Positions 14,369 through 36,264 of a stretch of 64,000 nucleotides of DNA are shown in pieces. This DNA comes from Thermofilaceae archaeon. GTDB lineage: Archaea > Thermoproteota > Thermoprotei > Thermofilales > Thermofilaceae. A program made the position numbers and the translations under genes. The stretch is taken from NCBI GenBank assembly GCA_038861545.1, contig JAWCCZ010000001.1, positions 480,001-544,000 of the forward strand. The letters run 5' to 3'. The notes under the pieces were generated by a model that worked only from the letters and a program-made list of their open reading frames with translations, was not told the origin of the DNA and searched no databases. The stretch's first letter is position 1. Each line of letters starts with the position of its first letter.

Positions 14369-14386
14369 ACTCCTATAATGTAGTTG

Positions 14387-14492
14387 AGTTATATATTCTT
14401 CACGCTAAACTTCGCTTGAAAAGGTGATTCTGGCTATAAATCGGAGGCCGTATTGACATTGAGGCGCAGAGGACACGCTATAGTTATATATT
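14387..14492. promoter_or_regulatory. Probable divergent TATA boxes for platform protein and ATPase
   Basis: AGTTATATATT at 14387-14397 and 14482-14492, each about 20-30 nt from the respective start codon. Confidence 0.45.
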
Positions 14493-14518
14493 ACCGACTT
14501 AACTTACATTGAGTTAGT

Positions 14519-16612
14519 GTGAGCGCCCAAGCTATTGAGAAAGAAGCTGGAGGGGGAAAAGCCAAAAAGGAGAAGGTTAAAAGTCAGAATAAAAAAGCCA
14601 AAAAGGAAAGATCTAAAAAGAAGGTTGAGGAAAAAACCGGAGAGGAGAAGGCTGGAGATGGTGTAAGTTTCCTACCGCTTAAAGAGCACTACAAAATCCT
14701 TGAAGAGTACTGGGTGGCTGAACCGTACGCTAAAGTCAAAATCGCTGAAATACCAGAGCTGGGAAATCAGCGGATGTACTTCGTCGAAGAAGTACAGCTA
14801 GCAAAGGGGGAGAAAAGCGTTCTAGGGAAGCTGATCGATATCCTGGCGGTCGAGCTTGAACCTCCAGCTTCGTTCGATGTGGATCTGAGGGAGCATATAG
14901 TCAAGGAAGCTAGGAGGCTTGCAGAGAAGTACCGGGCAGTCGCACGCGGCTTAAGCGAGGAAAGCTGGAATAGAGTGCTCTATTATGTTGAAAGAGACCT
15001 TGTCGGATATGGTCCGATAGAAGTTCTGATGCGTGACTACAAACTGGAGGATGTCTCCTGCGACGGTGTTGACAGGCCCATACACGTCTGGCACAGGGAT
15101 TACGAGTCCATCCCTACGAACATCGTTTTCAGGGACAGGGACACGTTGAGAGAGTTCATTGTGAAGATCACTCACATGTCCGGGAAGCATATCTCAGCCG
15201 CTTTCCCTATTGTGGACGCTATGCTCCCTGGTAGGCACCGGCTTGCAGCAACCTACGGTGAAGAGGTATCCCCGAAGGGTAGCACGTTCACGATTAGGAA
15301 GTTCAGGGAAAGGCCTTTCTCAGTCGTCGAGCTAGTCGAAACGGGTAACATCGACTCGTGGACCGCTGCTTACCTATGGTTGATGATCGAAAATAAAATG
15401 ACCGTCATGGTGATCGGAGCCACGGCCGCGGGTAAAACCACGTTCCTCAACGCAATCGCTAACTTCTTTAAGCCGGGCTTTAAGATTGTCACTATTGAGG
15501 AGACCCCTGAGCTGAACCTACCCCACGAGAATTGGGTCCAGCTGGTTAGCAGGGAGAGTTACGGCCTCGGCGAATCAAAGGTCGGCGAGATCTCGCTTTA
15601 CGACCTTGTAAGGCTCTCGCTTAGGTATAGGCCCGACTATATCATCGTCGGCGAAGTCAGGGGCTCCGAGGCTTTCGTCCTCTTCCAAGCGATGGCGACG
15701 GGGCATGGCGGTATGAGCACGATGCATGCCGATTCACTTGAAGCCGCTGTTAGGAGGCTTACGAGCCCGCCGATGAACGTGGCACCTGCATACATTCCGG
15801 CGTTGAACGTAGCGTGCTACGTGGAGAGGACTATTCTCCCGGACGGGCGGGTCGGTAGGAGGATGAGGCACCTTTGGGAGGTAGAAGACTACCAGAAGTA
15901 CAGGGAGATTGTCCGCTGGGACCCAGTTAGGGACACGCACGTGGTCGTTGGCGGCAGTACTCATGCGGGCTTTGTTGCCACGAGGTTGGGCAAAAGCGTA
16001 GACGAAGTATTCGAGGAGATCGAGCGGAGAAGACAAGTTCTCGAGTGGTTAAAGATGAAAGGCGTTAAAGATACAAAAGACGTATTCATCTGGATAAACC
16101 GCTACTACATGAACCCCAAGGAGGTGTACGAGCTAGCCCGCAGCGAGCTTGAGCAGCTCAAGGTGAAACCCGCGCCACCCATTGTAGCACCATCAGCGCC
16201 TTCAGCACACGTACCCGTAGTGGCTCCATCAGCCGCGGCGCAAGTCGCTCAACCGATCGCAAGGCCTGTTCTAGCTAAACAAACCTCAGAGGTAGATCCC
16301 CTTCAAGCGCTTCGATCTCTCCCAAGAGCAATACAGGTTAGAAGAGGGGCAGCAGCATCTGAGCCGATAATGATCAGCAAAGAGGCGCTTACAGTGCTTA
16401 AAGCTCTTGGAGGGCTGGGCGGGGTAGCGGATAGGGAAACTCTCCGCTCCTCGGCGGGGCTAGCCTACAACGTATATACTAAAGCTATCTCTGAGCTTGC
16501 GCAGAGAAGGCTTGTTGAAATTGCAGTAAGCTACTCGGGTGGATCCCCTAAAGTCAGCTACAGGTTAACGGAGCTTGGCGAAAGACAGCTTGAAGCGCTG
16601 CCACCCGAATAG
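14519..16612 (+). CDS. Type IV pilus assembly ATPase (ArlI/TadA/VirB11 family) with Pro/Ala linker and C-terminal wHTH
   Basis: LEDVSCDG, FTIRKF, Walker A GATAAGKT, TIEETPEL, LRYRPDYIIVGEVRG, TGHGGMSTMHA. Confidence 0.93.
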   Translation: MSAQAIEKEAGGGKAKKEKVKSQNKKAKKERSKKKVEEKTGEEKAGDGVSFLPLKEHYKILEEYWVAEPYAKVKIAEIPELGNQRMYFVEEVQLAKGEKSVLGKLIDILAVELEPPASFDVDLREHIVKEARRLAEKYRAVARGLSEESWNRVLYYVERDLVGYGPIEVLMRDYKLEDVSCDGVDRPIHVWHRDYESIPTNIVFRDRDTLREFIVKITHMSGKHISAAFPIVDAMLPGRHRLAATYGEEVSPKGSTFTIRKFRERPFSVVELVETGNIDSWTAAYLWLMIENKMTVMVIGATAAGKTTFLNAIANFFKPGFKIVTIEETPELNLPHENWVQLVSRESYGLGESKVGEISLYDLVRLSLRYRPDYIIVGEVRGSEAFVLFQAMATGHGGMSTMHADSLEAAVRRLTSPPMNVAPAYIPALNVACYVERTILPDGRVGRRMRHLWEVEDYQKYREIVRWDPVRDTHVVVGGSTHAGFVATRLGKSVDEVFEEIERRRQVLEWLKMKGVKDTKDVFIWINRYYMNPKEVYELARSELEQLKVKPAPPIVAPSAPSAHVPVVAPSAAAQVAQPIARPVLAKQTSEVDPLQALRSLPRAIQVRRGAAASEPIMISKEALTVLKALGGLGGVADRETLRSSAGLAYNVYTKAISELAQRRLVEIAVSYSGGSPKVSYRLTELGERQLEALPPE

Positions 16613-16708
16613 TACTGGTAACCGATTACAATCATAAAAAATGTTGGTTTCCCGCTATTACATGCGAAAAATATAAATTACAGTGTTCTTCTGATATTAT
16701 GAGAAGAC

Positions 16709-17164
16709 ATGATTAGGAGGAAGGCTATAAGCCCGGTTATCGCCACCGTGATTATCGTTGCAGTCACAATCGCTGTAGCGATAGCCGTAGCCTTCTGGAT
16801 GACCGGCATAGTCGGATTATTCACGGCAACTGAGAGATTAGAAATCACATCCGCTTTCGTTCAGTCTACTCAAAGTGGATGGACGATTACCATGACTGTC
16901 AAAAACACAGGTACGACGCCAACAAGCATCGACTATATAGTAGTTAACGGGGTAAATCTTGAGGATCCCGCCTGTGGCGGTGTGACTCTAAGTGCAGGAA
17001 CATTACCGCTGGCGATAAACCCCGGAACCGATGCGAACCTAGCCATAGATATTACTAGTGGGGGAACGTGTGGAGCTACCACGTTCTCCGCTGGAGTAAG
17101 TATTGAGTTAAAGCTTCACAGCACTGGAGGTAAAGAATACCCGAAGCTACTGGTGTTACCGTAA
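16709..17164 (+). CDS. Archaeal type IV major pilin
   Basis: MIRRKA/ISPVIATVIIVAVTIAVAIAV canonical prepilin N-terminus; own TATA-like box (ATATAAAT) about 30 nt upstream. Confidence 0.92.
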   Translation: MIRRKAISPVIATVIIVAVTIAVAIAVAFWMTGIVGLFTATERLEITSAFVQSTQSGWTITMTVKNTGTTPTSIDYIVVNGVNLEDPACGGVTLSAGTLPLAINPGTDANLAIDITSGGTCGATTFSAGVSIELKLHSTGGKEYPKLLVLP

Positions 17165-24406: not shown

Positions 24407-25996
24407 ATGGCGAAGGTTATGAAATCGCCGAAATATGTGATGGCGGTAGATCAAGGCACAACTGGGACCAGAGTGATGCTTTTCACGAGGGATGGTTTAC
24501 CAGTTCAAGGTGGATGGGCTTACCGCGAACATAGACAAATCTACCCCCGCCCCGGCTGGGTTGAACATGATCCAATGGAAATATGGGAGAACACGAAGCT
24601 CTGCATGAAAGAGGCTTTAGAGAAGGCTCGAGTAGACCCAAGGAACCTAGCAGCTATAGGTGTTACGAACCAGAGGGAGACGATAGTGGTATGGGATCAG
24701 CGCACAGGTAAACCTGTTTACAACGCTATCGTGTGGCAAGATAGGCGGACAGCCCCCTATGTGGATTACTTAAAAGGATACTATGCTGAAGTAGTAAAGT
24801 CGAAGACTGGATTAGTTCCCGACCCTTACTTCTCCGCAACTAAGGTTTGGTGGCTCTTGGATAATGTGCCGAACCTGAGGGAAAAAGCCTCTAAAGATGA
24901 CGTGCTAATCGGTACTATTGACACGTGGCTTGTATGGAACCTAACGCGTGGAGCTAGGGATGTACAGACACCAGAGAAAGGAGGAGCACACGTCACTGAC
25001 TACTCAAACGCGTCTAGAACTATGTTGTTCAACATATGGTACCTTGAGTGGGATGATGAGTTGTTAGAAATTAACGGTAAAATCCCGAAGGAACCCCTTC
25101 CAGCTCCGAGACCTTCAAGCGATAAGGCAGTTTACGGTTACACGGGACCTGAAGTTGCAGGCTTGCTTAGTGGAGCAAGTGTGCCAGTCACTGGTGATGC
25201 CGGTGATCAGCAGGCAGCGCTATTCGGTCAAGCCGGTTTCTCAGAGGGGGATATGAAGTGCACGTACGGGACTGGTAATTTCCTACTGATGAATACGGGC
25301 AGCAGGATCGTGGAATCGAGGCATGGTTTACTCACCACGGTATTCTATAGCCTTGAGCCTGGGAAGGCCACGTACGCTTTAGAGGGTAGTATCTTTGTCA
25401 CAGGTGCTGCTATACAATGGTTGAGGGATGGTTTAAAGATCATCGAAGTCTCTGCTGAGGTGAACCCGCTAGCTGAAAGCGTATCGGACACAGGCGGAGT
25501 TTACTTTGTCCCGGCGTTCGTGGGTTTAGGGGCGCCATACTGGGATCATTACGCTAGAGGGGTAATAGTGGGGATAACTAGGGGAACAGAGCGCAAGCAC
25601 TTAGCGCGAGCAGCACTGGAGTCTATAGCTTACATGACTCGAGACGTTGTGGAAGCAATGACTGCAGACACAGGCTTAAAACTCGATGTCTTAAAGGCGG
25701 ATGGAGGCGCAGCGAAAAGCGATTTCCTGCTTCAGTTCCAGGCGGATATCCTAGGTGTTAGGGTCGTAAGGCCGGTGGTTTGGGAGACAACGTCCTTGGG
25801 TGCCGCTTACTTAGCGGGGTTAGCGGTTGATATGTGGGACGGTATAAGCGAATTACGGGGTAACTGGAAGGCGGAGAGAGAGTTCAACCCATGGATGGAC
25901 GCAGCTACGAGGGATAGGCTTTATGAGGGGTGGAAGGCCGCGGTGAAGAGGGCTCTCGGCTGGGCGAAAGAGGTACCTTGGGCATATGGGTACTGA
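24407..25996 (+). CDS. glpK: Glycerol kinase
   Basis: [55 protein letters not shown]. Confidence 0.96.
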
Positions 25997-27497
25997 GGCT
26001 GGTGACGTGAAGCTGAAAGTAGCTATTATTGGAGCTGGTGTAGTGGGGGCTTCGATAGCCAGAGTACTCAGCATGTACGAAAATTTCGATGTAATCCTAC
26101 TGGAGCGAGAACCGGATGTGGGCTGGGGTGCGAGCAAGGCTAACACGTCTGTTATTCACCCGGGTCATGAGGAGGATCCAAGAAAGCACCCGATTAGAGC
26201 GAAGCTCTGCGTGGAGGGTAACCAATTATGGAGGAAGTGGACTGAGGAGCTCGATATCCCGGCTAGATGGCCAGGGGAGCTGATGCTTTTCTACAGTAAT
26301 GAGGAAGTTAAACGAGCTGCAGAGTACGTGGAGTTTGCCAGGCTTAACGGTGTACCCGGCGTTAAAATAGTGTGGGAGGAGGTTAAGCAGATTGAGCCGT
26401 GGGTTAACCCGAGCACAACTGGAGCGATTTACGCGCCAACCGCTGGCTTGGTATCTCCCTTCGAAGCTGTCGCTGCTATAGTGGAGAACGCTGTAGGAAA
26501 TGGAGTCAGGCTTCTAGCGGATACTGAGGTAAACGGAATCAAGGTTTCCGGCGGGGAAATAAATGGCGTGGAAACTGGTAGGGGGTTCGTGGAAGCTGAT
26601 TTAGTAATTAACGCTGCGGGTTTATGCGCGGATCGTGTTTCACACATGGCTGGTGTAGAGCTGGGGTTCAGGATAAAACCTAGAAGGGGGGAGTACCTTC
26701 TTTTTGATGAGAATGTGCATGTTAAACCGCGCATGATCCTGCATCCAGTCCCTACACCTATTACTAAAGGCGTCTACGCCATAACCACGGTTCATGGTAA
26801 CCTAATGCTCGGCCCTACAGCTGATGATCTACCCGAGGAAGAGAAAAATAATCTTTCGACTACAGGGGAGGGCCTTTCTCGCGTGATAGAGGAGGCTTCA
26901 AAGTTGTTAAAAGAGATTCCACCCCATGATAAGGTGATCAGGTTCTTTACAGGTTTAAGGCCGGAGCCTCCCCATGGCGAATGGTTGATTAAAGCCTACA
27001 ACGACCCTTGGGGTTTCGTCAACGTAGCCGGTATTCGATCTCCCGGTTTAACAGCTGCACCGGCTATTGCCAACTATGTTTTAGAGCTCATAGTCAGGGA
27101 ATATGATGTAAAGCTAAATCGTAAACTTTTGTGGAACCCTTACAGGGTGAACGTAACCAGTGTTAGGGGAAAAAACATAGAAGAAATGGATCAGCTAGTG
27201 AAAGTAAACCCGGACTATGGAGAAATCGTTTGTCGTTGCAGGTTAGTGTCCAAAGCTGAAATTATTGAAGCCATTGAAAGGATGAGGAAGATAGGGCTTG
27301 AGCGGATAACTGTTGATGGAGTTAAATTTAGGACTACGGCTGGAATGGGCTGGTGTCAAGGGCAGTTCTGCAGGTGGAGGATATCGCTTATTATCTCACA
27401 GGCCACCGGCATTCCGCTTTACGAGGTAGCTGTTAAGCGAGCAAGCTACGGTATAGGGGATGTAAAGGTTCTGCTTAAAGGTGGAAACATTTGCTAG
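25986..27497 (+). CDS. FAD-dependent glycerol-3-phosphate dehydrogenase (GlpA-like, C-terminal BFD-like Cys cluster)
   Basis: [31 protein letters not shown]...[10 protein letters not shown]; follows glpK. Confidence 0.85.
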
Positions 27498-28741
27498 AGC
27501 TAAAGTTCGACTTGGTTGTGGTTGGAGGCGGTCCAGCCGGAATCGCTGCAGCCTCGAAAGCCTGTGAGCTGGGCATGAAAGTAGGGTTAATTGAGAACAG
27601 GGAAGTCCTCGGAGGAATCCCATTACAGTGTGTTCATTCAGGTTTTGGTGTGCATATTTTTAGGGAGGATTTAACAGGGCCAGAGTTCATCTATAGGCTC
27701 ATTGATCGGCTTCAACGCACAGATGTTAAACTTCTCCTGAGATCTTATGTGCATTCGATTGAGTTGAAGGCTTTCGACGAGAAGATTGTCACGGTATTTT
27801 CGCCGAATGGGGTTCAAAGGCTATACGCTAAGGCGATTGTGCATTCAACAGGTGCGCGGGAGAGGACGATATTCGAAATAGGCGTAACTGGCGAAAGGCC
27901 AGATGGAGTGTACACCGCTGGGGAGGCTCAGACGATGATGGATTTGTACGGCTTGATGCCGGGTCGAAAGGTAGTTATCATTGGATCCGGTGATGTGGGC
28001 TTAATTATGGCTAGAAGGTTCGCGCTTGAAGGTGCCGAAGTGAGAGCTGTAATCGAGGTGCTTCCCTACCCGGGTGGATCTATGCGGAATGTAGTCAGCT
28101 GCCTCCAGGATTTCGGGATACCGCTTTACCTAAACCATGCTGTGGTCTCCCTCTATGGTAGAAAGAGAGTTGAGAAGGTAGTTGTAGCGAAAGTTGACAG
28201 CGAAATGAAGCCTATACCGGGTACGGAGTTCGAAGTAGAGTGTGATGTAGTCGTAGTGGCCGCCGGCTTAAGACCTAACATGGAGCTGTTGGAGAGGATG
28301 GGTGCAGTTCTCGATCCAGCTACAGGGGGGCCAGTCGTTAATGAAATGCTCGAAACAACGGTTCCTGGAGTCTTCGCGGCCGGCAATGCGTTAGTTGTAA
28401 ACGACTTAGTAGATTATGCTGTTGAGCAGGGTGAAAGGGCTGCTGAAGGCGTTTACGAGTTCATCAGCAACTGTTCTAAAAGCGCTGCGTGGAAGAAGGT
28501 AATAAAAGGTAGAAATGTGAGGTTGATTATACCTCACTACGTCAGCGGTGAACGAGACGTTATATTTTACGCGAGGGTTAAGAACCCTGAAAGAAAGGTT
28601 TTCTTTGAGCTACTCGGATCTGATTTGAAGTTGTACCAGCAGGGCGTCAGACCTTCAGAGATGGTTAGGTTTAAAGTTTCTTCATCAATTATATCCAGCT
28701 TAGGTGATAAACTACTCTTCCAGGTGAGGCCGCTTGAGTGA
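27491..28741 (+). CDS. NAD(P)/FAD-dependent oxidoreductase (partner of GlpA-like)
   Basis: VVGGGPAG, QCVHSGFG, TGARER, GSGDVGLIMARR, GVFAAGN. Confidence 0.88.
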   Translation: MLELKFDLVVVGGGPAGIAAASKACELGMKVGLIENREVLGGIPLQCVHSGFGVHIFREDLTGPEFIYRLIDRLQRTDVKLLLRSYVHSIELKAFDEKIVTVFSPNGVQRLYAKAIVHSTGARERTIFEIGVTGERPDGVYTAGEAQTMMDLYGLMPGRKVVIIGSGDVGLIMARRFALEGAEVRAVIEVLPYPGGSMRNVVSCLQDFGIPLYLNHAVVSLYGRKRVEKVVVAKVDSEMKPIPGTEFEVECDVVVVAAGLRPNMELLERMGAVLDPATGGPVVNEMLETTVPGVFAAGNALVVNDLVDYAVEQGERAAEGVYEFISNCSKSAAWKKVIKGRNVRLIIPHYVSGERDVIFYARVKNPERKVFFELLGSDLKLYQQGVRPSEMVRFKVSSSIISSLGDKLLFQVRPLE

Positions 28742-29135
28742 GGTAACGCTTATATGTATAATCTGCCCAGCTGCCTGCGAGCTTAAGGCTGTTTTGCTAC
28801 CGAATGATGAAACGCGGGTAGAGGGTGCAGGGTGCGCTAGAGGAGTAGAGTACGCCAAGCAAGAAGTGCTTAACCCGAGGCGGATGATAGTAACGGTAGT
28901 TAAGGTTAAAGGGGGCGATCTCCCAGTGGTTTCAGTTAAAACGAGTCAACACGTACCGAAGAGTCGCATCGCAGAGATCATGAGAACTACAGCGGAAGTC
29001 GTAGTCGACGCGCCAGTTGAGATTGGGCAAGTTGTAGCAATGTGCCCGGGGGGTGTAGAGCTTATAGCTACGAGGCGAGTAAAAGCCTTAGCCGATCAAA
29101 GGGCCTTGGGAAAGCTGTACGAGAACACAAGTTAA
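28734..29135 (+). CDS. DUF1667 family small Fe-S/Zn protein
   Basis: CIICPAAC...GAGCARGVEYA..E..NPRR, VSVKT; usual third gene of this glycerol operon. Confidence 0.85.
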   Translation: MSEVTLICIICPAACELKAVLLPNDETRVEGAGCARGVEYAKQEVLNPRRMIVTVVKVKGGDLPVVSVKTSQHVPKSRIAEIMRTTAEVVVDAPVEIGQVVAMCPGGVELIATRRVKALADQRALGKLYENTS

Positions 29136-29148
29136 TATATTCCTAAAG

Positions 29149-29514
29149 TTAACTGGCACTTTTCACTGAATCCTCAATCTGCTTAGTGTATTTGTCGAGT
29201 AAGTAGTATATTAGACCTAGATTCGGGTTACTCTTAGATACGAGGCATATTACGCCGTTTTTCAGTTCTCTCAGCATAACGATTCTGCCATCTTCTAACT
29301 CAACAACCACGTCCCTAACACCAGTGCTGAAATACTGTCTAAAAGCCTCTCCCACGCCTGCTACTACAGCTGCTCCAAGCGCTGCTACTATGTCATCGAT
29401 ATCTGACGGATTTGAAGCAGCTATGGTAACCCCATCAAGAGTTGCTAGCACCGCGCGCTCCAGCTCACCCATACTTCTTTTTACCAGTTCCCCGAGAACT
29501 GTTTCAACACTCAT
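29149..29514 (-). CDS. Roadblock/LC7 (MglB-like) protein
   Basis: AVLATLDGVTIAAS, VAALGAA, VVVELEDGRIV, NLGLI. Confidence 0.88.
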   Translation of the reverse strand: MSVETVLGELVKRSMGELERAVLATLDGVTIAASNPSDIDDIVAALGAAVVAGVGEAFRQYFSTGVRDVVVELEDGRIVMLRELKNGVICLVSKSNPNLGLIYYLLDKYTKQIEDSVKSAS

Positions 29515-29837
29515 CTGAGCACCACCCTGTACACCCCGTCTTCCTGAGGCGTTACTTGTAACTCGTTTTCCCCTATACGTACTCTAAGCTCGCTAAGTCC
29601 TCCAGCTTCCTCGAAAACCTTTACTGCTTGAACAGCGTACACGGCTAACATTTTATCCACTTGCCCCTGCGCTTCCACCACTAGCCCCCTCTTATCGACC
29701 AGTGCCGCCCACTTATACCGCCCTTTATCCTTTTTCTTCCGCGACTTTAAGATAACTATAGCCAGCACCACTGCTACAACCACGATAGCGGCTGCAGTAG
29801 CTGTAAGCATGAGCATGGAGCCTGTTAACGGCATCAT
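29511..29837 (-). CDS. Single-TM membrane-anchored Roadblock-like protein
   Basis: N-terminal TM, basic stop-transfer KSRKKKDK, then AALVDKRGLVVEA (Roadblock beta-hairpin motif). Confidence 0.55.
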   Translation of the reverse strand: MMPLTGSMLMLTATAAAIVVVAVVLAIVILKSRKKKDKGRYKWAALVDKRGLVVEAQGQVDKMLAVYAVQAVKVFEEAGGLSELRVRIGENELQVTPQEDGVYRVVLR

Positions 29838-29891: not shown

Positions 29892-30488
29892 GTGTTACGA
29901 ACCAGTGCATTAAATATAAAACCCACCAGTAAAGAGATTATCGCGGGGAAAAGGTTGCAGGACACGGAGACCGTGCTCATCGCCGGCCCTTTTGGAGCTG
30001 GGAAGACTACATTCATACGCACTGTCAGCGGTAAGTCGATTACTACGGACAGGGAGCTAAGTGGCATAGGCGTTAGCGCTGGAGAAGTCAAGCTAAAGGG
30101 CTCTACAACCGTTTTCGCTGACATGGGTGTCGCTGAGCTGGATGGGAGGAAGCTCCTCCTCTACGGGGCTCCCGGTCAAGTTCGTTTTAGCTTCACGGTT
30201 AAAGGGCTGGCGTCACGCTGTAAGTATCTAGTTTTCCTCGTGGACACAACAGATGAAGCAGCTGTTATGAGGAGTAGGCTGTATTATGAGCGACTCATAA
30301 AACCCTATTTTGATCGTTTTACAAGTAAGGTCTTCGCACTAAATAAGAGAGATACATCGAAGCTTCCAATCATGAGGGTGTTGGAGTTATTCGGATCCAT
30401 GAATTGCCCTTTTGTCGAGCTTGTTGCGCTGGATAAGGGCTCTTGTCTTACTGCGTTAAGGATTCTTCTAGGAGGTGAAGGGGTATAA
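29892..30488 (+). CDS. MglA/CvnD-like small GTPase (start possibly TTG at 29955)
   Basis: G1 GPFGAGKT, TTVFADMG (MglA-type TTVxxDxG), YGAPGQVRF, G4 NKRD. Confidence 0.88.
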   Translation: MLRTSALNIKPTSKEIIAGKRLQDTETVLIAGPFGAGKTTFIRTVSGKSITTDRELSGIGVSAGEVKLKGSTTVFADMGVAELDGRKLLLYGAPGQVRFSFTVKGLASRCKYLVFLVDTTDEAAVMRSRLYYERLIKPYFDRFTSKVFALNKRDTSKLPIMRVLELFGSMNCPFVELVALDKGSCLTALRILLGGEGV

Positions 30489-30496
30489 TAGAGAGG

Positions 30497-30832
30497 TTGA
30501 AGAATATTTTCAGAGAGAGACGGGGAAAGCGGTATTCTTTTCCCACCACTGTGGTGGCAGGAGATTATGAAGTTATGGGTTCCGCTTTAACTATTGAGGA
30601 GGTAAGCGAGGACATGGAGCTGGCAGATGCATTAAAGCCCTTTGCAGCGATGAGTTCAGATTCGCCTGTACTGGTGATAGCGATAGGCAAGGGTTGGAAG
30701 GTTAAGCTAGCGGTGAATAAAGGTCTAGTGGAGATCGTGGAAGTAGAGGGAATAAACGCTGATAAGGCGATTTTCATGCGGGGGCCAGCTATTGTTCTTC
30801 CGTTCCCGGCTAAGGCTTTACGGCGGAAATAA
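30497..30832 (+). CDS. Small hypothetical protein, possibly PATAN/DUF4388-like
   Basis: Helix plus beta pattern VLVIAIGKGWKVKLAVNKGLVEIVE; directly downstream of the GTPase. Confidence 0.4.
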   Translation: MKNIFRERRGKRYSFPTTVVAGDYEVMGSALTIEEVSEDMELADALKPFAAMSSDSPVLVIAIGKGWKVKLAVNKGLVEIVEVEGINADKAIFMRGPAIVLPFPAKALRRK

Positions 30833-31586
30833 GCGTAAGGAGGGGTCCTCTTCTGAACCTAACGGATCCAAACCTCTCCCCTTCAATATAACTTCTTACT
30901 AACTCAGCCGACCAGGTGCCGGCCGTGCTCCCTAAAGCCACAAGAAACGGGGTTATCGGGTTAGCCCCTTCCCACTCGAGCGGTGCTATCATTATAAACT
31001 GGCCTCCCGGTGAAAGTGCAGCGGAAGCCCTGGAGATCAACGGCATCGGCTCATACAGCCAGTTTGAGGGTGAGGCGATGATGATGGAACCTATTGGCTC
31101 GCTCAAATGCCTTAGGAAGCTTGCATAATCCCCTTTAACTAAGAGGTAGTTAGAATTCCCTATACCCCTTAACCTTTCCTCTGCTATTGCGAGGTTGATG
31201 TCTGAGGGGTCTACCGCTATAAGCCTGCTCCACAGCTTGGCTGCATACTCCAAGCTCACAGCCGGTCCGCAGTGCATGTCTACTAAAGCCCCCTCCCTCC
31301 TCCTCGAGGCTGATAACCCGCCCCACAAAAGGTCGGTGAACTCCTTGGATTGCATCAAGGCTTCCGAGAACAATGCAAAGTCCGGCGTATCCCAGGGTTT
31401 CTCACCCCGTATTAGAGGAACTCTTTCAGCGAGGAATTTGAAAACTTTAAGTAGGTAAGGATCTGGGAGCCCCTCCCCCGCTTTAACTGAAGCCGTAATC
31501 TGTCGGACACTCTCAGATTCGCGGATCCCAGCTGTTGATTTAACAAGATCCCTTAATGCCTCGTAAACGGATCTCCAAGCGCTCAT
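30810..31586 (-). CDS. Class I SAM methyltransferase-like protein (degenerate motif I)
   Basis: LVDMHCGPA, LIAVDPS..NL, LLVKGD, ALSPGGQFIM. Confidence 0.75.
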   Translation of the reverse strand: MSAWRSVYEALRDLVKSTAGIRESESVRQITASVKAGEGLPDPYLLKVFKFLAERVPLIRGEKPWDTPDFALFSEALMQSKEFTDLLWGGLSASRRREGALVDMHCGPAVSLEYAAKLWSRLIAVDPSDINLAIAEERLRGIGNSNYLLVKGDYASFLRHLSEPIGSIIIASPSNWLYEPMPLISRASAALSPGGQFIMIAPLEWEGANPITPFLVALGSTAGTWSAELVRSYIEGERFGSVRFRRGPLLTLISAVKP

Positions 31587-32368
31587 CCAGCCACCTCTTC
31601 GAACCTTATAATCCCTCTTCTCTCTAAAGCTAAGATTCCGCTAAACCTTTCTCGCATAGTAACTGGGTCTTGCGCCAGAACCGCGTCAACAAGCCTCCAA
31701 CCGTCTAAGCCAGCGGCCCAATCTATGATCCTGGGCGATATCCAGGGTAAACGGTTTACATACTCCTTGAAAAGTGCTACGGCACCAGTGTCGACTTTCA
31801 CTACAAGTTTCCTTGATTTGAATGCTAACTCGAAAAGTCTTACCATAAAGGGGGAAGGTTGAGTGCTGATGCTAGCGTCGAGGAGCAGCGTGGAAAGCAG
31901 TATCGTGCCAAGGTCTGCTGTAGGCACTTTAGCCAAGCCTTTAAGGTACCCTCTAGCCCACTCAACGGCTGTTTTCGCCAAATCGAGATTCGAAAGCTCA
32001 AGCTCAAGCTCCGAATTTTCCTCGGAAATCTTAAGCGCGGTACCCATACTCCTCCTGTAGCACTCAATCATACCTCCACCGGTTGAGAGCCTGAAACCGT
32101 TGATGTGACTCATATAATTCAAGTAAGCCGGATTAACCCTAAGTGTCTCGCCTTTCTGTAGAGTTCTGAAAACTCTAATCCCTCTATCATGTCCCTCAGC
32201 GTCAACATATACGACAAAGACATGGTCACCATGATAGTCTGCAACACCTACTAAGCCGGTAGGGCTAGATAGAGCTGCCGTCAACGTAGTTGCGTCTAGT
32301 ACGAACTCTACACCCTTCCCGCAATCTGGACACGTGAGCTTTAAGACACGGACAGCTCTTGTGGCCAA
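31583..32368 (-). CDS. Zn-finger (CxxC...HxxH) protein with C-terminal wHTH-like end
   Basis: CPDCGK...YHGDHVFVVYVDAEGHDRG; C-terminus ILALERRGIIRF. Confidence 0.6.
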   Translation of the reverse strand: MATRAVRVLKLTCPDCGKGVEFVLDATTLTAALSSPTGLVGVADYHGDHVFVVYVDAEGHDRGIRVFRTLQKGETLRVNPAYLNYMSHINGFRLSTGGGMIECYRRSMGTALKISEENSELELELSNLDLAKTAVEWARGYLKGLAKVPTADLGTILLSTLLLDASISTQPSPFMVRLFELAFKSRKLVVKVDTGAVALFKEYVNRLPWISPRIIDWAAGLDGWRLVDAVLAQDPVTMRERFSGILALERRGIIRFEEVAG

Positions 32369-32874
32369 TTTCCCACCCCCGATAGAAACTCAGCTAGGGC
32401 AAGGAAGGGGACATCCGTATTAGCTCCATCTTTAGCTGAAGTTTCAAAATAAGCTAGAAAACCTCTTCGCGTTGCATAATCTTCTGCCCGCTCGCGTGGA
32501 ATAACCCTATAAGTTGTCATATCCACCTTGTTTCCAACAAGGACGCGCGGTAAATCACCTACCACGTCAAGAACCACAGTAAGCCAGTCCTCTAAGTGCT
32601 CGAAAGTTTCCTCCCTCGTTACATCAAATACAAAAACAGCTCCTCTAGCGCCTTTCAGGAACACTGGGGCGAGAAAGCGGAAACGCTCTTCTCCCCCTAA
32701 ATCCCATACTATAAGTTTAATCGGCCCGTCGTTAGTTGGCAACTCTCTCACGTGGTGGGAAACCCCAACTGTAAGTTTTTGCATTGGGTTGAAAGGGGAA
32801 CCAATGAACCTGCTGACTAAGCTCGTTTTTCCCACCCCGCCGTCCCCACACATAACAATTTTAAATGCCTTCAT
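32341..32874 (-). CDS. Rab-like (Ras superfamily) small GTPase
   Basis: G1 GDGGVGKTS, G2 LTVGV, G3 WDLGGEERF, FLKGA, FVFDVT, G4 NKVD, G5 ETSAK. Confidence 0.95.
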   Translation of the reverse strand: MKAFKIVMCGDGGVGKTSLVSRFIGSPFNPMQKLTVGVSHHVRELPTNDGPIKLIVWDLGGEERFRFLAPVFLKGARGAVFVFDVTREETFEHLEDWLTVVLDVVGDLPRVLVGNKVDMTTYRVIPRERAEDYATRRGFLAYFETSAKDGANTDVPFLALAEFLSGVGNWPQELSVS

Positions 32875-32879
32875 AGACC

Positions 32880-33251
32880 CTAGGGTGAAAGCACCTTACT
32901 TAAACGTTCTCCGGCGGACTCCGCCTGCCAAAGTGCATATCCGAGCTTGGATTCAGCACCGATCAGCATTACGAGCACGAAATCCCTACTCAGGCTCTTA
33001 ATTAACAATATCCCCTTATCGCTTTTAACCGCGAGGTATGCCATGCTACCCCCCCTGAGCTCCTTAATTACTTGCTCAGCCACGCCTTGGAGGGTTGCTG
33101 CCATCGCGGAGACTTTCAGTTCATCGGCTTCTTTCATAAGGGAAACCACCGGCATGCCGTCACTGGTGACAACCGCAACAGCATCTAGCCCTGGATTATC
33201 TTTCCGCATACCCTCCAGAATATCGTTTAGGGCCTCGTATCTACCCTTCAA
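32880..33251 (-). CDS. Roadblock/LC7 (MglB-like) protein
   Basis: AVAVVTSDGMPVVS, VSAMAATL, KLGYAL. Confidence 0.92.
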   Translation of the reverse strand: MKGRYEALNDILEGMRKDNPGLDAVAVVTSDGMPVVSLMKEADELKVSAMAATLQGVAEQVIKELRGGSMAYLAVKSDKGILLIKSLSRDFVLVMLIGAESKLGYALWQAESAGERLSKVLSP

Positions 33252-33364
33252 ACGGACCCCTAGATAAGGGTTAAATTACGGATTAAATATGTTTCGGTTG
33301 ATTAACCCATGTTAAATCAGCAACTGTCGATGTAATCAAGCGGGATTTACTTAAGGCCTGTTTT

Positions 33365-34339
33365 CTATGCTTTCAAGATAAAGGCGGGCGCCGGATGCCT
33401 CATTCGCTTTTCAATGCGCCATCCAGCGGTTTTAATCCAATCGTTTAACTGCTCCATCGTCGGCAGTATACTGGATCCCAGAAGGTAAGTTAAAGGAGCA
33501 AGCACCAGGCTAAGCTTCGTATCTAAGACTCCCTGAGTTAGCAAAGCGTTAGGTGTGACTTCTCTAACAGAGTTCAGAATTGTAAGTGGGTCGCTGCACC
33601 AGTGTAGAATGTTAATCATGACCGCGAAGTCAGCACTCTTAACAACCCTATGAATTTCCTCCCCCCTTCCCACTCTAACTTCTAACCTATCGCTTAGACC
33701 GAGAACCTCGGCGTAGCTCTTCGCAACTTCTAGGTTCGGCTGATAGGGGTCCACAGCGATTACGCGGCTACCCGGGACAAGCCTGAGAATCGTTATAGAT
33801 GAAAGCCCGATCCCTGCACCTACGTCCACGACCAACGAACCTGGCGGAATGTTCGCCCATTTTACTACTAGTTCCCTTAACCGATCGTAACCCAGGTTAT
33901 CTAAGAAACGCCCGAACACGGCTCTGCTTTCCGCTCCGGCTGAGCTGCGGGCCATAAACCTTTCTCCGCTCATCAGCGAGTCCGGGAGGGTAGCGTAAAC
34001 CCTGTCGATAACCGGCTTAAATGACACGAGATACCTGTTAGTTACTGGGGGAGGGTTACCAGATGTGCTTAGCCACTTCAACCTATCTGCCTCCCACCGG
34101 GCTAAGCCCTCGGCCTCCATTATGTCTCCGATAAGTTTAGCAAAACTCGGATCGGGGAACTCATGGAAAGGTTTTCTCTCCATCTCTTTATCGACCCCGG
34201 ATTCTTCCAGCACTTGACGCGCTTTCCAAACAGCGTACCGCTCAGTCTCTCTTACAGCTTGCAGCATCTCACGCCCCTCTTTGCTGCCGATCATCTTTAG
34301 CGTGAACGAGATAAAAGATAACTCCGGCATCCTAACCAC
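33365..34339 (-). CDS. Class I SAM-dependent methyltransferase with N-terminal helical domain
   Basis: VVDVGAGIG, VIAVDPY, ILHW. Confidence 0.85.
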   Translation of the reverse strand: MVRMPELSFISFTLKMIGSKEGREMLQAVRETERYAVWKARQVLEESGVDKEMERKPFHEFPDPSFAKLIGDIMEAEGLARWEADRLKWLSTSGNPPPVTNRYLVSFKPVIDRVYATLPDSLMSGERFMARSSAGAESRAVFGRFLDNLGYDRLRELVVKWANIPPGSLVVDVGAGIGLSSITILRLVPGSRVIAVDPYQPNLEVAKSYAEVLGLSDRLEVRVGRGEEIHRVVKSADFAVMINILHWCSDPLTILNSVREVTPNALLTQGVLDTKLSLVLAPLTYLLGSSILPTMEQLNDWIKTAGWRIEKRMRHPAPAFILKA

Positions 34340-34703
34340 CCTCAGGTTCTAGAACACCAAGCTTAAGCAGGGCTTCCACGGCTTTTCTCACCTCCGGCGT
34401 TAGTTCGCCTTCACCTCTTAACGCCGCGATAACCTGTTCTCTCATACGCTCTAGCATGGAAGGCCAGAGCTCCGGTCTCGCTAACCTAAGCCTTCCAGGT
34501 TTGTTCAAAGGTTCAGTAACCTCGATTGGCCGAATATCTCGTATATCTGCATTCATATCCGCGAGAATCAAAGTGTAGCCTCCGCATCCAGTGCACCGTA
34601 CAACTGTAGTTCCCTGCTTAACCTCAACCACGAGCGAGTTGTCACAGTGCGAGCACGGGATCTTAGCTATCCTGCCTTTTCCTCCAACTTCAACCACTTC
34701 CAT
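34332..34703 (-). CDS. Zn-ribbon (2x CxxC) protein with C-terminal wHTH-like end
   Basis: CSHC...CTGCGG, then ILADMNADIR; C-terminus VEALLKLGVLE. Confidence 0.65.
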   Translation of the reverse strand: MEVVEVGGKGRIAKIPCSHCDNSLVVEVKQGTTVVRCTGCGGYTLILADMNADIRDIRPIEVTEPLNKPGRLRLARPELWPSMLERMREQVIAALRGEGELTPEVRKAVEALLKLGVLEPEGG

Positions 34704-35028
34704 TATTCTCCCCCTCTTTTTTGAAAATTATTTTTAATTCCTCAAGCCAAAAATTAATGAAATTTTTATCATCGCGCTCAAAAGCGTTTAACAGCTCATC
34801 CGGCGGAACCCTGAACCCTCTCTCAGTCAGGATGCAAGCAACAAGTATGATAAACAACCTAGCATAGTCAAGGTCATTATCATATAAGCCAGCTAGCCGT
34901 TCCATAAACCTCCTAGGCGACTCTACAACCAGTGTATCAGGGTCACCCCACCCCTCTCTCTCAAACCCTCTTCTTACAAGCATTCCAGCCGGGTAAGCCA
35001 GGAAATCGAGAAGCTCAGTCAACCTCAT
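34690..35028 (-). CDS. Small helical protein, NitrOD5/DUF3227-like output domain
   Basis: ESPRRFMERLAGLY...ARLF pattern resembles the P..F...L..LFG family; assignment by eye only. Confidence 0.45.
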   Translation of the reverse strand: MRLTELLDFLAYPAGMLVRRGFEREGWGDPDTLVVESPRRFMERLAGLYDNDLDYARLFIILVACILTERGFRVPPDELLNAFERDDKNFINFWLEELKIIFKKEGENNGSG

Positions 35029-35029
35029 A

Positions 35030-36043
35030 TCACTTCACCTCTACCTCTTTCTGAAGTTTAACTACTTCACGTAGCAGGTACAGAAGCGGAGTAACTTTCA
35101 CGATGCCCGGTATCATTGTGAACTCTATCGCATCAATGTCCAGGTCACCTAGCGCTCTATACAATTCGGGCATTGCCGCACATGGTGGTTGGCCAGATAC
35201 CAAAGCCTTACTTAGGTCAATGTAAGCTGTGTGGAACCAAGGTAACTGAACCAATGTATTTGCAACAGCGTAAGCGTCTCTTCCTTCAACGTAAATCACC
35301 TTATACGGTGTGGAATCCAGCTTATCGTATACGCGTACCCTATTTCCCTCCCATAAATTAAGCAAATGATCTTTGAAATGTTTGCTAAGTACCCGGCGTG
35401 GAACTTTTTTCTCAAAGTATTTTTCGCTTTCTCTTTCAGCTTCTCTCATGGAAGAGAAAGGCCATTTAAACTTCATTGATAGAATTAAAAGGTCAACGTC
35501 ATCGAGTAGTATATTTTTCTCGGATAGGGAAAGCTGCGGCCCTCTCTCTTTTTCACCCTTTTGTAGATATATTTCAGGGATTTTCCCATACAGTTTTCCA
35601 TTCGTGTACATTGTTAGCTTAGATTTTGGACTCCACCATGCTCTTTTTACGGCTCTAACTACTAAGGCGTTATCCTCAAAGTTTGATAGCCAGTTTTCAA
35701 TAACTTCGTTTGCTACTGGCAATAGTCCAACGTAAAGGTAGTAACGACCTCCCATGATGCGCAGTTCCCTTGTAGACTCATAGTAAGGTAATTTTTCTAT
35801 ATACTTTTTACTGATAACTGCTATGTTTAAAAGTCCAGCTTTCTCCAGTTTTATTTCAAATCTTAAAGAAACATTTTTGGAAACATTAAATTGGGAGAGT
35901 AAACGGGAAACCGTGTATGGTGGTAAGCCGGATTTTTTCACCACTTCGGATATCGTAAGCGAATCTTCCACTGCTTGTATAACTTTCCATTCATCTTCTC
36001 TTATGTTAAGAAATGGGAAAAATTTTTCTGATATAGTCCTCAC
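35030..36043 (-). CDS. Tandem Lrp/AsnC-like HTH transcriptional regulator
   Basis: First HTH TISEVVKKSGLPPYTVSRLL...IKLEKAGL; second HTH LDDVDLLIL...VPRRVLSKHF..HL. Confidence 0.7.
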   Translation of the reverse strand: MRTISEKFFPFLNIREDEWKVIQAVEDSLTISEVVKKSGLPPYTVSRLLSQFNVSKNVSLRFEIKLEKAGLLNIAVISKKYIEKLPYYESTRELRIMGGRYYLYVGLLPVANEVIENWLSNFEDNALVVRAVKRAWWSPKSKLTMYTNGKLYGKIPEIYLQKGEKERGPQLSLSEKNILLDDVDLLILSMKFKWPFSSMREAERESEKYFEKKVPRRVLSKHFKDHLLNLWEGNRVRVYDKLDSTPYKVIYVEGRDAYAVANTLVQLPWFHTAYIDLSKALVSGQPPCAAMPELYRALGDLDIDAIEFTMIPGIVKVTPLLYLLREVVKLQKEVEVK

Positions 36044-36077: not shown

Positions 36078-36233
36078 TTAAAGTGGGTCTATGTCAGGCG
36101 CAGGCACTCCTCCTGGCGGGGGTGGAGGCTCGGGAGCAACAATGCTCTTAGAAATTACGAACGCAGCTAGCGCAAGCACTAGCGCAAGCAGCTTCCACTT
36201 GTAAATTTTCAGTACGTATTTTATGGTTCTCAT
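36078..36233 (-). CDS. 51-aa hydrophobic, proline-rich micropeptide (not in ORF track)
   Basis: Manual translation MRTIKYVLKIYKWKLLALVLALAAFVISKSIVAPEPPPPPGGVPAPDIDPL*; basic N-region plus hydrophobic core; TTTAAGTA box 24 nt upstream; stop 34 nt before the next gene. Confidence 0.7.
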   Translation of the reverse strand: MRTIKYVLKIYKWKLLALVLALAAFVISKSIVAPEPPPPPGGVPAPDIDPL

Positions 36234-36264
36234 CAATAATTAGGTGAAAACTGTGATACTTAAA

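Follow-up and report, generated by a model that had tools for sequence, protein, structure and literature searches.

Two zinc-ribbon protein/methyltransferase-fold gene pairs beside a Roadblock and Rab-like GTPase locus in a Thermofilaceae archaeon: a conserved, putatively accessory pair and its probable remote relative

Introduction

Why is a small-GTPase locus in an archaeon flanked on both sides by genes for a zinc protein and a methyltransferase? This question is raised by a 64,000-nucleotide stretch of DNA from a hot-spring Thermofilaceae archaeon (assembly GCA_038861545.1), hereafter the window, which comprises positions 480001-544000 of contig C1 in a 1.63-Mb genome of 12 contigs. On the minus strand of the window, genes for a Roadblock/LC7 protein and a Rab-like small GTPase are followed by genes for a zinc protein and a class I methyltransferase fold (ZnA and MTA) and preceded by a second pair of this kind (ZnB and MTB). 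An initial annotation made from the sequence alone described these as two overlapping pairs flanking Roadblock-Rab, and the open reading frames (ORFs) and Pfam matches bear this out. It also regarded the pairs as a duplicated module that may sense S-adenosylmethionine (SAM) on behalf of the GTPase. The present analysis points tentatively, with slightly less than an even chance of being right, to two separate units that share an ancient design, in which ZnA and MTA are accessory to the Roadblock/GTPase switch and ZnB-MTB is a dispersed cassette.

Archaeal small GTPases partnered by Roadblock proteins figure widely in discussions of how eukaryotic trafficking and nutrient-signalling switches arose, as forerunners of these, and their accessory proteins are almost unknown. 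This locus offers a compact, conserved set of candidate partners, namely, a three-domain zinc protein of an undescribed family and a methyltransferase fold in which the SAM loop is eroding. The new element is the pair of accessory genes (ZnA and MTA) on a known Roadblock/small-GTPase module. A literature search, which left subscription journals and supplements outside its range, found no description of the Roadblock/Rab/ZnA/MTA gene set.

Results

The Roadblock gene (32880-33251, minus strand; 123 aa; Pfam Robl_LC7, E 1.1e-12, 47.9 bits against a cut-off of 23) is the first gene of an operon. It is followed by the Rab-like (Ras-family) GTPase gene (32341-32874, minus; 177 aa; Pfam Ras, E 6.3e-41), ZnA (31583-32368, minus; 261 aa), and, as the last gene, MTA (30810-31586, minus; 258 aa, with a class I methyltransferase fold and a degenerate motif I). 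The second pair consists of ZnB (34332-34703, minus; 123 aa) and its partner MTB (33365-34339, minus; 324 aa). In the ORF list, the order on the minus strand from 5' to 3' is p337, p112, ZnB, MTB, a gap, Roadblock, Rab-like GTPase, ZnA, and MTA. Neighbouring genes in both groups overlap (p112/ZnB by 14 nt, ZnB/MTB by 8 nt, Rab/ZnA by 28 nt, and ZnA/MTA by 4 nt) or lie no more than 5 nt apart, except at the AT-rich gap of 113 bp between MTB and Roadblock (33252-33364). Because every other junction is this tight, the gap is likely to be the boundary between two transcription units.

DNA-run contigs from a second study span the Rab-Roadblock-MTB and Roadblock-MTB-ZnB-p112 junctions; therefore, the gene order is real and not an assembly artefact. 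RNA-library contigs cover MTA, ZnA, and part of the Rab gene, and one 880-nt contig bridges the ZnA/MTA junction, which is a weak hint of expression. These contigs left MTB, ZnB, p112, and p337 uncovered, which does not mean that these genes are silent. An apparent joint between positions 31635 and 34753 was discarded because it consisted only of 18-21-nt pieces of an unrelated contig. A scan with bacterial-type promoter and terminator models returned 11 sites against 8.2 expected; since the models are bacterial and the host is archaeal, this result is uninformative.

ZnA was present in 26 of 41 related genomes. Among 401 genomes of the phylum, the ZnA profile matched 22, and the 16 with full-length matches were confined to the order of the window and one further family. 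We fetched 25 ZnA loci, leaving out two fragments at contig ends (G007 and G021). An MTA-family ORF lay directly downstream of ZnA in all 25, two of these ORFs being partial; in Thermofilum-like genera, it was recognised only through profile iteration. The Rab gene was directly upstream of ZnA at 19 of the 25 loci, two others being cut by contig ends and four lacking it. Of these four, one has a p337-like gene before ZnA, and two have a GTP198-like GTPase as the neighbour. Genera g1 and g9 both keep the Roadblock gene upstream of Rab. ZnA-MTA is thus a conserved unit at a GTPase locus.

The same does not hold for ZnB-MTB. Of nine ZnB-MTB pairs with readable context, three are beside GTPase genes (in two genomes of the genus of the window and in genome G034) and six are not, their surroundings varying from transporters to a CRISPR-associated gene, sugar enzymes, and pilus genes. 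In the window, the order along the forward coordinates is the glp operon, a second GTPase module, MTA, ZnA, Rab, Roadblock, MTB, ZnB, p112, and p337. The sister genus g9 has p337-p112 next to its glp operon, and its Rab operon is bordered by a helicase gene on one side and type IV pilus genes on the other. In view of this arrangement in g9, the position of ZnB-MTB beside the Rab operon is a derived, genus-specific rearrangement. The glp operon, which encodes glycerol kinase and glycerol-3-phosphate dehydrogenase, occupies 24407-29135 of the window, and in g9 it abuts p112-p337 (L100, L101).

Some further features were noted around ZnB-MTB pairs elsewhere. Pilin-like genes flank the pairs in G009:C2 and G034. 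By eye, ParB-like ORFs are near both (L065:205-1173 for G034 and L061:11477-12001 for G009:C2), as are a ParA-like ORF in G009:C2 and small winged helix-turn-helix (wHTH) ORFs in G034. Judging from their gene content, these two copies may be on integrated or mobile DNA. In G009:C5, a 177-aa ORF resembling Arrestin_N, Arrestin_C, and Spo0M (L062:8879-9412) is separated from an MTB-family gene by approximately 1.6 kb, which includes a Cas_APE2256 gene.

We compared the two pairs with each other and with their relatives. BLASTP aligned MTA with MTB over 121 residues at 25% identity (E 6e-5). However, MTB has closer relatives in its own genome, at C2:225664-226668 (270 bits, 42% identity) and C1:443700-444818 (229 bits, 37%), and MTA was absent from the MTB search of the genome at E<=0.01. 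With the MTA-family profile, the best non-self match in the genome was MTB, at 30.3 bits and within the methyltransferase core only, other methyltransferases scoring approximately 21. With the MTB-family profile, MTA (19.8 bits) was level with unrelated methyltransferases (22.2 and 19.0). An hhalign comparison of the two families gave a probability of 98% (E 1.6e-13) over 201 columns of the Rossmann core, which would be expected of any two class I enzymes. In view of the closer paralogues of MTB and the profile scores, MTA and MTB are therefore not a recent duplicate pair, and they are at most slightly closer to each other than to other methyltransferases.

The MTB family has one to four copies per genome, 10 copies with ZnB directly upstream and eight without. 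Its maximum-likelihood tree has three clades: MTB of the window groups with the G009:C2 copy and the paralogues of its own genome, the copies of G034 and G038 cluster together, and the third clade consists of nine g9 copies. Therefore, the GTPase-linked copies of the window and G034 are not sisters. The GxGxG form of motif I is restricted to the clade of the window and the G034/G038 clade; the g9 expansion has D(V/I)xPRxGxS.

The zinc proteins gave a different picture. Pairwise BLASTP between ZnA and ZnB was not significant (E 0.78). We aligned 27 ZnA orthologues (A1), 10 ZnB members (A2), and nine short proteins with a ZnA-type zinc domain (A3), and hhalign linked the zinc domains of A1 with A2 at 95.2% (E 2.9e-8), A3 with A2 at 96.4% (E 1e-9), and A1 with A3 at 99.6%. 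The alignment pairs CPxC with CxxC, HxDH with CxxCG, and VVYVDxxGxERG with LLLVDANLGVRD; ZnB lacks the 10-residue helix of the ZnA zinc domain. As a control, the hhalign score of a ZnA-type zinc-domain alignment (A6) against the ZnB N-domain was compared with shuffled alignments. The observed score of 53.9 stood against 10.1+-2.0 for 150 column shuffles and 20.0+-2.2 (maximum 26.2) for 150 shuffles with both CxxC knuckles fixed. With the ligand motifs masked, the score was 26.6 (E 5e-5). These controls indicate that the similarity exceeds the metal ligands. In HMMER searches of the genome, the ZnA-N and ZnB profiles did not retrieve each other among the top 10 matches listed, and generic small CPxC proteins outscored ZnB and ZnA with the reciprocal profiles. 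On balance, the zinc domains of ZnA and ZnB are probable remote homologues.

These results leave the duplicated module of the initial annotation half standing. A common origin of the zinc domains is probable, and a recent duplication is not indicated, the two methyltransferases not being each other's closest relatives. Every zinc-protein and methyltransferase motif that it quoted occurs in the translations. The C-terminal LxxxG(I/V) helix that it considered to be shared fared less well: a second alignment obtained with hhalign at a relaxed threshold gave a probability of only 2%, although both structural models end in a helix and then a strand. We read both pairs as descendants of one ancient plan, a zinc-ribbon protein with a methyltransferase fold, rather than products of local duplication.

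ZnA carries CPDC, HGDH, and VYVDAEGHDRG (CPxC...HxDH...YVDxxGxxRG in the family) and has no Pfam family match. In the 27-sequence alignment, C13, P14, C16, H46, H49, D56, G59, D164, and R251 are invariant. The AlphaFold2 (AF2) model (predicted local distance difference test, pLDDT, 87.9; predicted template modelling score, pTM, 0.82) has three parts. Residues 7-67 form a beta-beta-alpha-beta-beta-beta arrangement with the CPxC and HxDH knuckles on two hairpins, i.e., a C2H2 zinc ribbon with an inserted helix. Residues 89-146 form a beta-rich middle of four strands and a long helix, and residues 153-258 are helical, with a winged helix at the C-terminal end. Foldseek searches of the PDB with the ZnA and ZnB models returned nothing at E<=0.001, and the ZnA profile had no match below E 0.3 among PDB sequences. 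VIA-align matched the ZnA model to 13 chains with Z of at least 5, and nearly all rows listed were winged-helix domains over residues 183-261. The best match was the RiPP recognition element (RRE) domain 8t19_A (Z 6.8, root-mean-square deviation 2.9, 72 aligned), followed by PriA (Z 6.3), GATOR1 8fw5_C (Z 6.2), and the SEA complex 8adl_U (Z 5.7). The RRE entries 8t19, 3h5a, 4wd9, and 6ec8 were intermixed with non-RRE winged helices at equal Z. Residues 183-261 are accordingly modelled as a winged helix at the level of fold only, all Z being below 8. For the middle domain, the rows were 7p3x_S (Z 4.6), 6frk_y (4.6), 2go5_1 (4.3), and 4afi_B (4.2), all weak and obtained with the whole-protein model. 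We also noted that the ZnA orthologue of G002 (L015:8413-9201, G002:C75) has 273 stop-free codons, but its first start codon is at approximately codon 90, pointing to either a non-canonical start or an error in the sequence.

MTA carries IAVDPSDINLAIA and a degenerate motif I (VDMHCGPA), as the initial annotation had observed. It passes a single Pfam methyltransferase model, Methyltransf_11, and does so marginally (22.6 bits against a cut-off of 21.2); its profile retrieves generic SAM methyltransferases from the PDB at no more than 33 bits. Family members have H, Y, or N instead of the first motif I glycine, and the canonical D/E-x-G-x-G-x-G is absent (DMHCGPA in the window). The glycine loop is wholly lost in Thermofilum-like genera (e.g., EINNVTP). 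The near-invariant residues E75, W176, A187, G195, and P202 lie outside the SAM loop.

In contrast to MTA, MTB, which carries IAVDPYQPNLEVA, has the canonical motif I (VDVGAGIG) that the initial annotation had pointed out. It exceeds the Pfam cut-offs of Methyltransf_25 (36.6 bits; cut-off 27), Methyltransf_11 (34.7; 21.2), and Methyltransf_12 (33.4; 30), gives weak O-methyltransferase (Methyltransf_2) matches, and has a conserved N-terminal domain of approximately 150 aa. As far as its motifs and profile matches tell, MTB is a class I SAM methyltransferase that is apparently active. ZnB carries CSHC, CTGC, and ILADMNADIRD. In the 10-member alignment, C17, C20, and C37 are invariant and C40 is nearly so; the Pfam scan yielded weak zinc-ribbon matches only. 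Its AF2 model (pLDDT 82.1) shows a five-stranded C4 zinc ribbon, then a strand, two helices, and a terminal strand. The best structural rows were LysW, S27e, and Tim15-type ribbons, with Z of at most 3.3. The ZnB profile matched Tim15 (2e2z) with an E of 7.8e-4 over profile positions 9-89 (VIA match, Z 2.6), and Pfam zf-DNL (PF05180) had no ZnB match at E<=1. Residues 70-123 of ZnB reached some ZnA-type winged-helix/RRE entries with Z of only 2.0-2.7.

The Rab-like GTPase keeps the nucleotide-binding motifs GDGGVGKTS (P-loop), NKVD, and SAK, which place it in the Ras superfamily. Its switch II reads WDLGGE, with Gly at the site of the catalytic Gln, and this is invariant in 17 of 17 orthologues. 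Since WDLGGE occupies the position of the DxxGQ motif, the GTPase lacks the catalytic Gln.

The zinc domain of ZnA also occurs apart from it. The nine short A3 paralogues (78-161 aa; L052-L060, e.g., L054:5077-5496 and L058:4803-5288) combine a ZnA-type zinc domain with a wHTH that matches HTH_47 in five of nine (one above the cut-off) and DUF742 in three of nine (all below the cut-off); matches to HTH_24, TrmB, MarR_2, and Zn_ribbon_Brz were also found. One of these paralogues lies two genes from a Ras-family GTPase. At five of the nine A3 loci, a conserved protein of approximately 214-234 aa with no Pfam family follows immediately or closely. The possibility that this protein is a third methyltransferase-like partner was ruled out by an hhalign probability of 0.1-0.2%.

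Among 1.84 billion proteins, the profile of the ZnA-type zinc domain found 186 representative clusters at E<=1e-3 and 24 at E<=1e-10, including Bathyarchaeota proteins of approximately 280-300 aa and proteins of Promethearchaeota and Njordarchaeia. The locus therewith defines a rare zinc-ribbon variant, CPxC...HxDH...YVD, that extends into Bathyarchaeia and Asgard archaea. In the ESM Atlas, the best clusters for ZnA were Asgard hypothetical proteins at 0.87, which is below the 0.9 level and serves as a lead only. The initial annotation had associated the motif with Lokiarchaeal proteins, and the Asgard members lend this some weight. Across eight relative loci (seven bathyarchaeal and one Promethearchaeati/Asgard, many on short contigs), profiles found no GTPase, Roadblock, or methyltransferase neighbours. 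Therefore, the GTPase link is a feature of the ZnA branch and not of the zinc domain. The Bathyarchaeia proteins of approximately 270-300 aa join the same zinc domain to an unrelated conserved C-terminal part (L104-L111; P0041-P0063).

Beyond MTA, the window has a second GTPase module identified in the Pfam scan, with a Roadblock gene (29149-29514, minus), a gene for a membrane-anchored Roadblock-like protein (29511-29837, minus), and a gene for a 198-aa P-loop GTPase (29892-30488, plus), which is followed by p111 (30497-30832, plus). This module is kept beside MTA in genera g1 and g9, p111 following the GTPase in the genus of the window only. In G035 and G038, a related GTPase occupies the same position beside MTA. 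On the other side, p112 (34690-35028, minus; 112 aa) has no known family and is elsewhere paired with p337, not with ZnB. The p337 gene (35030-36043, minus; 337 aa, with an N-terminal HTH and a weak HTH_23 match) belongs to a large multi-copy family of HTH proteins of approximately 350 aa, which is present in 36 of the 41 related genomes with up to seven copies. In relatives, p337 and p112 are repeatedly found together with a small membrane peptide that has a Pro-rich tail and is encoded upstream (36078-36236 in the window). A type IV pilus set (T2SSF/TadC-like, T2SSE ATPase, and archaeal pilin) lies at 12560-17164 of the window, approximately 16 kb from the Rab operon, and in G019, type IV pilus genes directly adjoin the Roadblock gene (L009:10854-15270).

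Discussion

We propose that the first unit, the operon of Roadblock, the Rab-like GTPase, ZnA, and MTA, encodes a small-GTPase switch, which is conserved in the lineage of Thermofilaceae and families close to it. The Roadblock protein, presumed to be a regulator of the GTPase-activating protein (GAP) type, and the GTPase without its own catalytic Gln would together constitute the switch. ZnA and MTA would form an accessory regulator or effector subcomplex, in which ZnA, as the dedicated adaptor of the switch, may contact both the GTPase and MTA. By analogy, ZnA may do for this switch what the third component, a winged-helix (DUF742) protein acting as a guanine nucleotide exchange factor (GEF), does in the actinobacterial conservon. 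MTA would be its catalytically weakened or dead partner, acting as a scaffold or as a subunit that binds SAM or another ligand. The second unit, the p337-p112-ZnB-MTB string, is on this interpretation one copy of a dispersed, multi-copy cassette of a small zinc-ribbon protein and an apparently active methyltransferase, and the genus-specific rearrangement brought it beside the first. ZnB-MTB would then be the catalytically competent relative, with a logic akin to Trm112 pairs and the regulator/methyltransferase pairs of the EarA type. The proposal builds on observed gene order, conservation, domain architecture, zinc-domain homology, and motif I erosion; the contacts of ZnA with MTA and with the GTPase, a GEF or effector role, and any methylation target are its inferred part.

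Several observations weigh against this interpretation. The four loci with no adjacent Rab gene show that ZnA-MTA can exist without Rab in cis. In G034, ZnB-MTB sits inside a tight string, GTPase-Roadblock-p177-ZnB-MTB-Ras; because the pair is embedded in this operon, ZnB-MTB may be functionally tied to GTPases as well, and its adjacency in the window is perhaps not a mere accident. MTA of this genome may still bind SAM because it retains the acidic residue that ends beta-2 (IAVDP) and one loop glycine. As regards ZnA, fold matches that are all below Z 8 may reflect a shared arrangement only and not kinship, and the longin/SRX matches of the middle domain (residues 88-186) are weak, with Z of 4.2-4.6. 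None of the 27 ZnA family members matched DUF742 (PF05331) or HTH_47 (PF16221), and hhalign of ZnA against the wHTH paralogues aligned the zinc domain only. Furthermore, some RNA-library contigs may represent DNA carry-over.

The initial annotation offered a different explanation, in which duplicated zinc/methyltransferase pairs feed the Roadblock-Rab system, with catalysis left to MTB and with MTA, a pseudo-enzyme, as a sensor that reports SAM or S-adenosylhomocysteine (SAH) to the GTPase, as SAMTOR does for mTORC1. The common two-gene architecture, the remote homology of the zinc domains, the standing of MTB as the best non-self match to the MTA profile (30.3 bits against approximately 21), the intact motif I of MTB beside the degenerate one of MTA, the ZnB-MTB pair within the G034 GTPase operon, and the match of the ZnA winged helix to those of GATOR1 and SEA (Z 6.2 and 5.7) are all consistent with this explanation. 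However, MTB has two closer paralogues in its own genome and MTA ranks with generic methyltransferases on the MTB profile, six of the nine readable ZnB-MTB pairs are away from GTPase genes, the adjacency in the window is derived, and the 113-bp gap separates the units. The loss of the whole MTA glycine loop in Thermofilum-like genera runs contrary to conserved SAM sensing. Moreover, no relationship of the SAMTOR type was among the matches listed (the best 60 of 106 PDB matches to the MTA profile), and the literature search found no paper joining SAMTOR, archaea, and Roadblock. The sensor idea is an analogy, with the eroded motif I as the sole point in its favour, and we regard the explanation as a whole as improbable. 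We place equally little weight on a bolder version of the accessory model, a four-component switch in which ZnA is a zinc-ribbon/longin-like/winged-helix adaptor, MTA is a pseudo-enzyme through which methyl-donor status or a methylated partner acts on the switch, the whole is a prokaryotic counterpart of Ragulator/GATOR1/SAMTOR-Rag control, and ZnB-MTB are active mobile cousins.

Two other explanations make less of the GTPase. In eukaryotes and archaea alike, several class I methyltransferases are activated by Trm112, a small Zn-binding protein, and both pairs may be holoenzymes of this kind that modify housekeeping RNA or protein, their linkage to GTPases being an operonic convenience. The translational coupling of each zinc protein to a methyltransferase fold and the many unrelated contexts of ZnB-MTB agree with this. 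However, the Trm112 (PF03966) matches of the genome are elsewhere (C3:108887-109147, 46.3 bits; C1:187561; and C4:249369) and none is in ZnA or ZnB. There was no Trm112 structure among the best 50 listed VIA matches of ZnB, and ZnA is a 261-aa three-domain protein, unlike Trm112. In addition, SAM-loop erosion is unexpected of a housekeeping enzyme, and ZnA-MTA is linked to Rab at 19 of the 25 loci; we consider the holoenzyme explanation rather unlikely. Slightly better placed, and still unlikely, is the possibility that ZnA and ZnB are DNA-binding regulators of their own operons, with the methyltransferase as a co-regulated gene or partner, similar to euryarchaeal EarA near pilus and archaellum loci. 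A winged-helix fold at the C terminus of ZnA, the classical wHTH domains of the short paralogues (HTH_24, TrmB, MarR_2, and Zn_ribbon_Brz matches), the pilus genes that flank the G019 Rab operon and the ZnB-MTB pairs of G009:C2 and G034, and the conserved N-terminal domain and weak Methyltransf_2 matches of MTB accord with such a role. According to PMC4858521, arCOG03422 (pfam07381) regulators nearly always have as their neighbour a SAM methyltransferase whose N-terminal domain serves dimerisation, and type IV pilus loci include Roadblock proteins. However, the EarA family (PF07381) gave no match to ZnA or ZnB in the genome of the window and 20 relatives at E<=0.1. The ZnA winged helix resembles peptide- or protein-binding winged helices (RRE, GATOR1, and ScpA) as closely as it does DNA-binding ones, all at similar Z, and the tight linkage of ZnA to the GTPase gene, rather than to varied regulons, better suits a signalling subunit. 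We return to ZnA-MTA as a putative accessory of the Roadblock/GTPase switch and to ZnB-MTB as a dispersed cassette, tentative as this interpretation is.

Several known systems resemble parts of this locus. The SAMTOR-GATOR1-Rag-Ragulator system also has a methyltransferase-fold protein, Roadblock proteins, and small GTPases, the genes of which are near each other here. However, this is an analogy only: no sequence relationship was found, and the winged-helix scores of ZnA (6.2 and 5.7) are below 8, in the range of chance fold similarity. In the DNL finger of Tim15/Zim17/Hep1, the second CxxC is followed by a strand of the HL(L/I)xxD type, as in ZnB; however, ZnB has no zf-DNL match, its structural Z is 2.6, and no link to Hsp70 was seen. 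The Trm112 holoenzymes are an analogy in how they work, a small Zn-binding protein being paired with a class I methyltransferase.

In the EarA (PF07381)/arCOG05058 pairs, a small winged-helix protein is encoded beside a methyltransferase with an extra N-terminal domain, often near type IV pilus loci; ZnB-MTB is arranged likewise, and some of its copies are near pilus genes. Unlike EarA, ZnB has no PF07381 match and has a C4 zinc ribbon. The Rab-like gene may belong to the Group 2 Rup GTPases, a group of the Ras superfamily that is restricted to Crenarchaeota. Wuichet and Sogaard-Andersen (2014, PMC4316618) state that the neighbourhoods of Group 2 Rup genes yielded no conserved proteins, whereas the locus described here has a conserved Roadblock/ZnA/MTA neighbourhood. 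Similar to MglA-MglB, in which a Ras-like GTPase is paired with a Roadblock GAP, a Roadblock gene is directly upstream of a small-GTPase gene, and pilus genes are near it in relatives. In contrast to MglA-MglB, the GTPase has Gly in place of the catalytic Gln, and the extra genes ZnA and MTA are conserved.

The actinobacterial conservon or mfp operon (CvnA-D) combines, as does this operon, a Roadblock protein, a small GTPase, a winged-helix third protein, and a fourth protein with an enzyme fold. According to PMC11343762, the DUF742 protein MfpC acts as a GEF, and the Roadblock protein MfpD as a GAP, of the small GTPase MfpB. The short paralogues of ZnA with an HTH_47/DUF742-like wHTH add to the likeness. 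The differences are that the GTPase is Ras/Rab-like and not MglA-like, the fourth gene encodes a methyltransferase fold and not a histidine kinase, the host is archaeal, and ZnA, with no detectable DUF742 (0 of 27), has in addition a C2H2 zinc ribbon and a beta-rich domain. If ZnA acts as a GEF, a GAP cofactor, or an effector, the conservon type of logic, in which a Roadblock GAP is joined by a winged-helix GEF, would be extended to Archaea.

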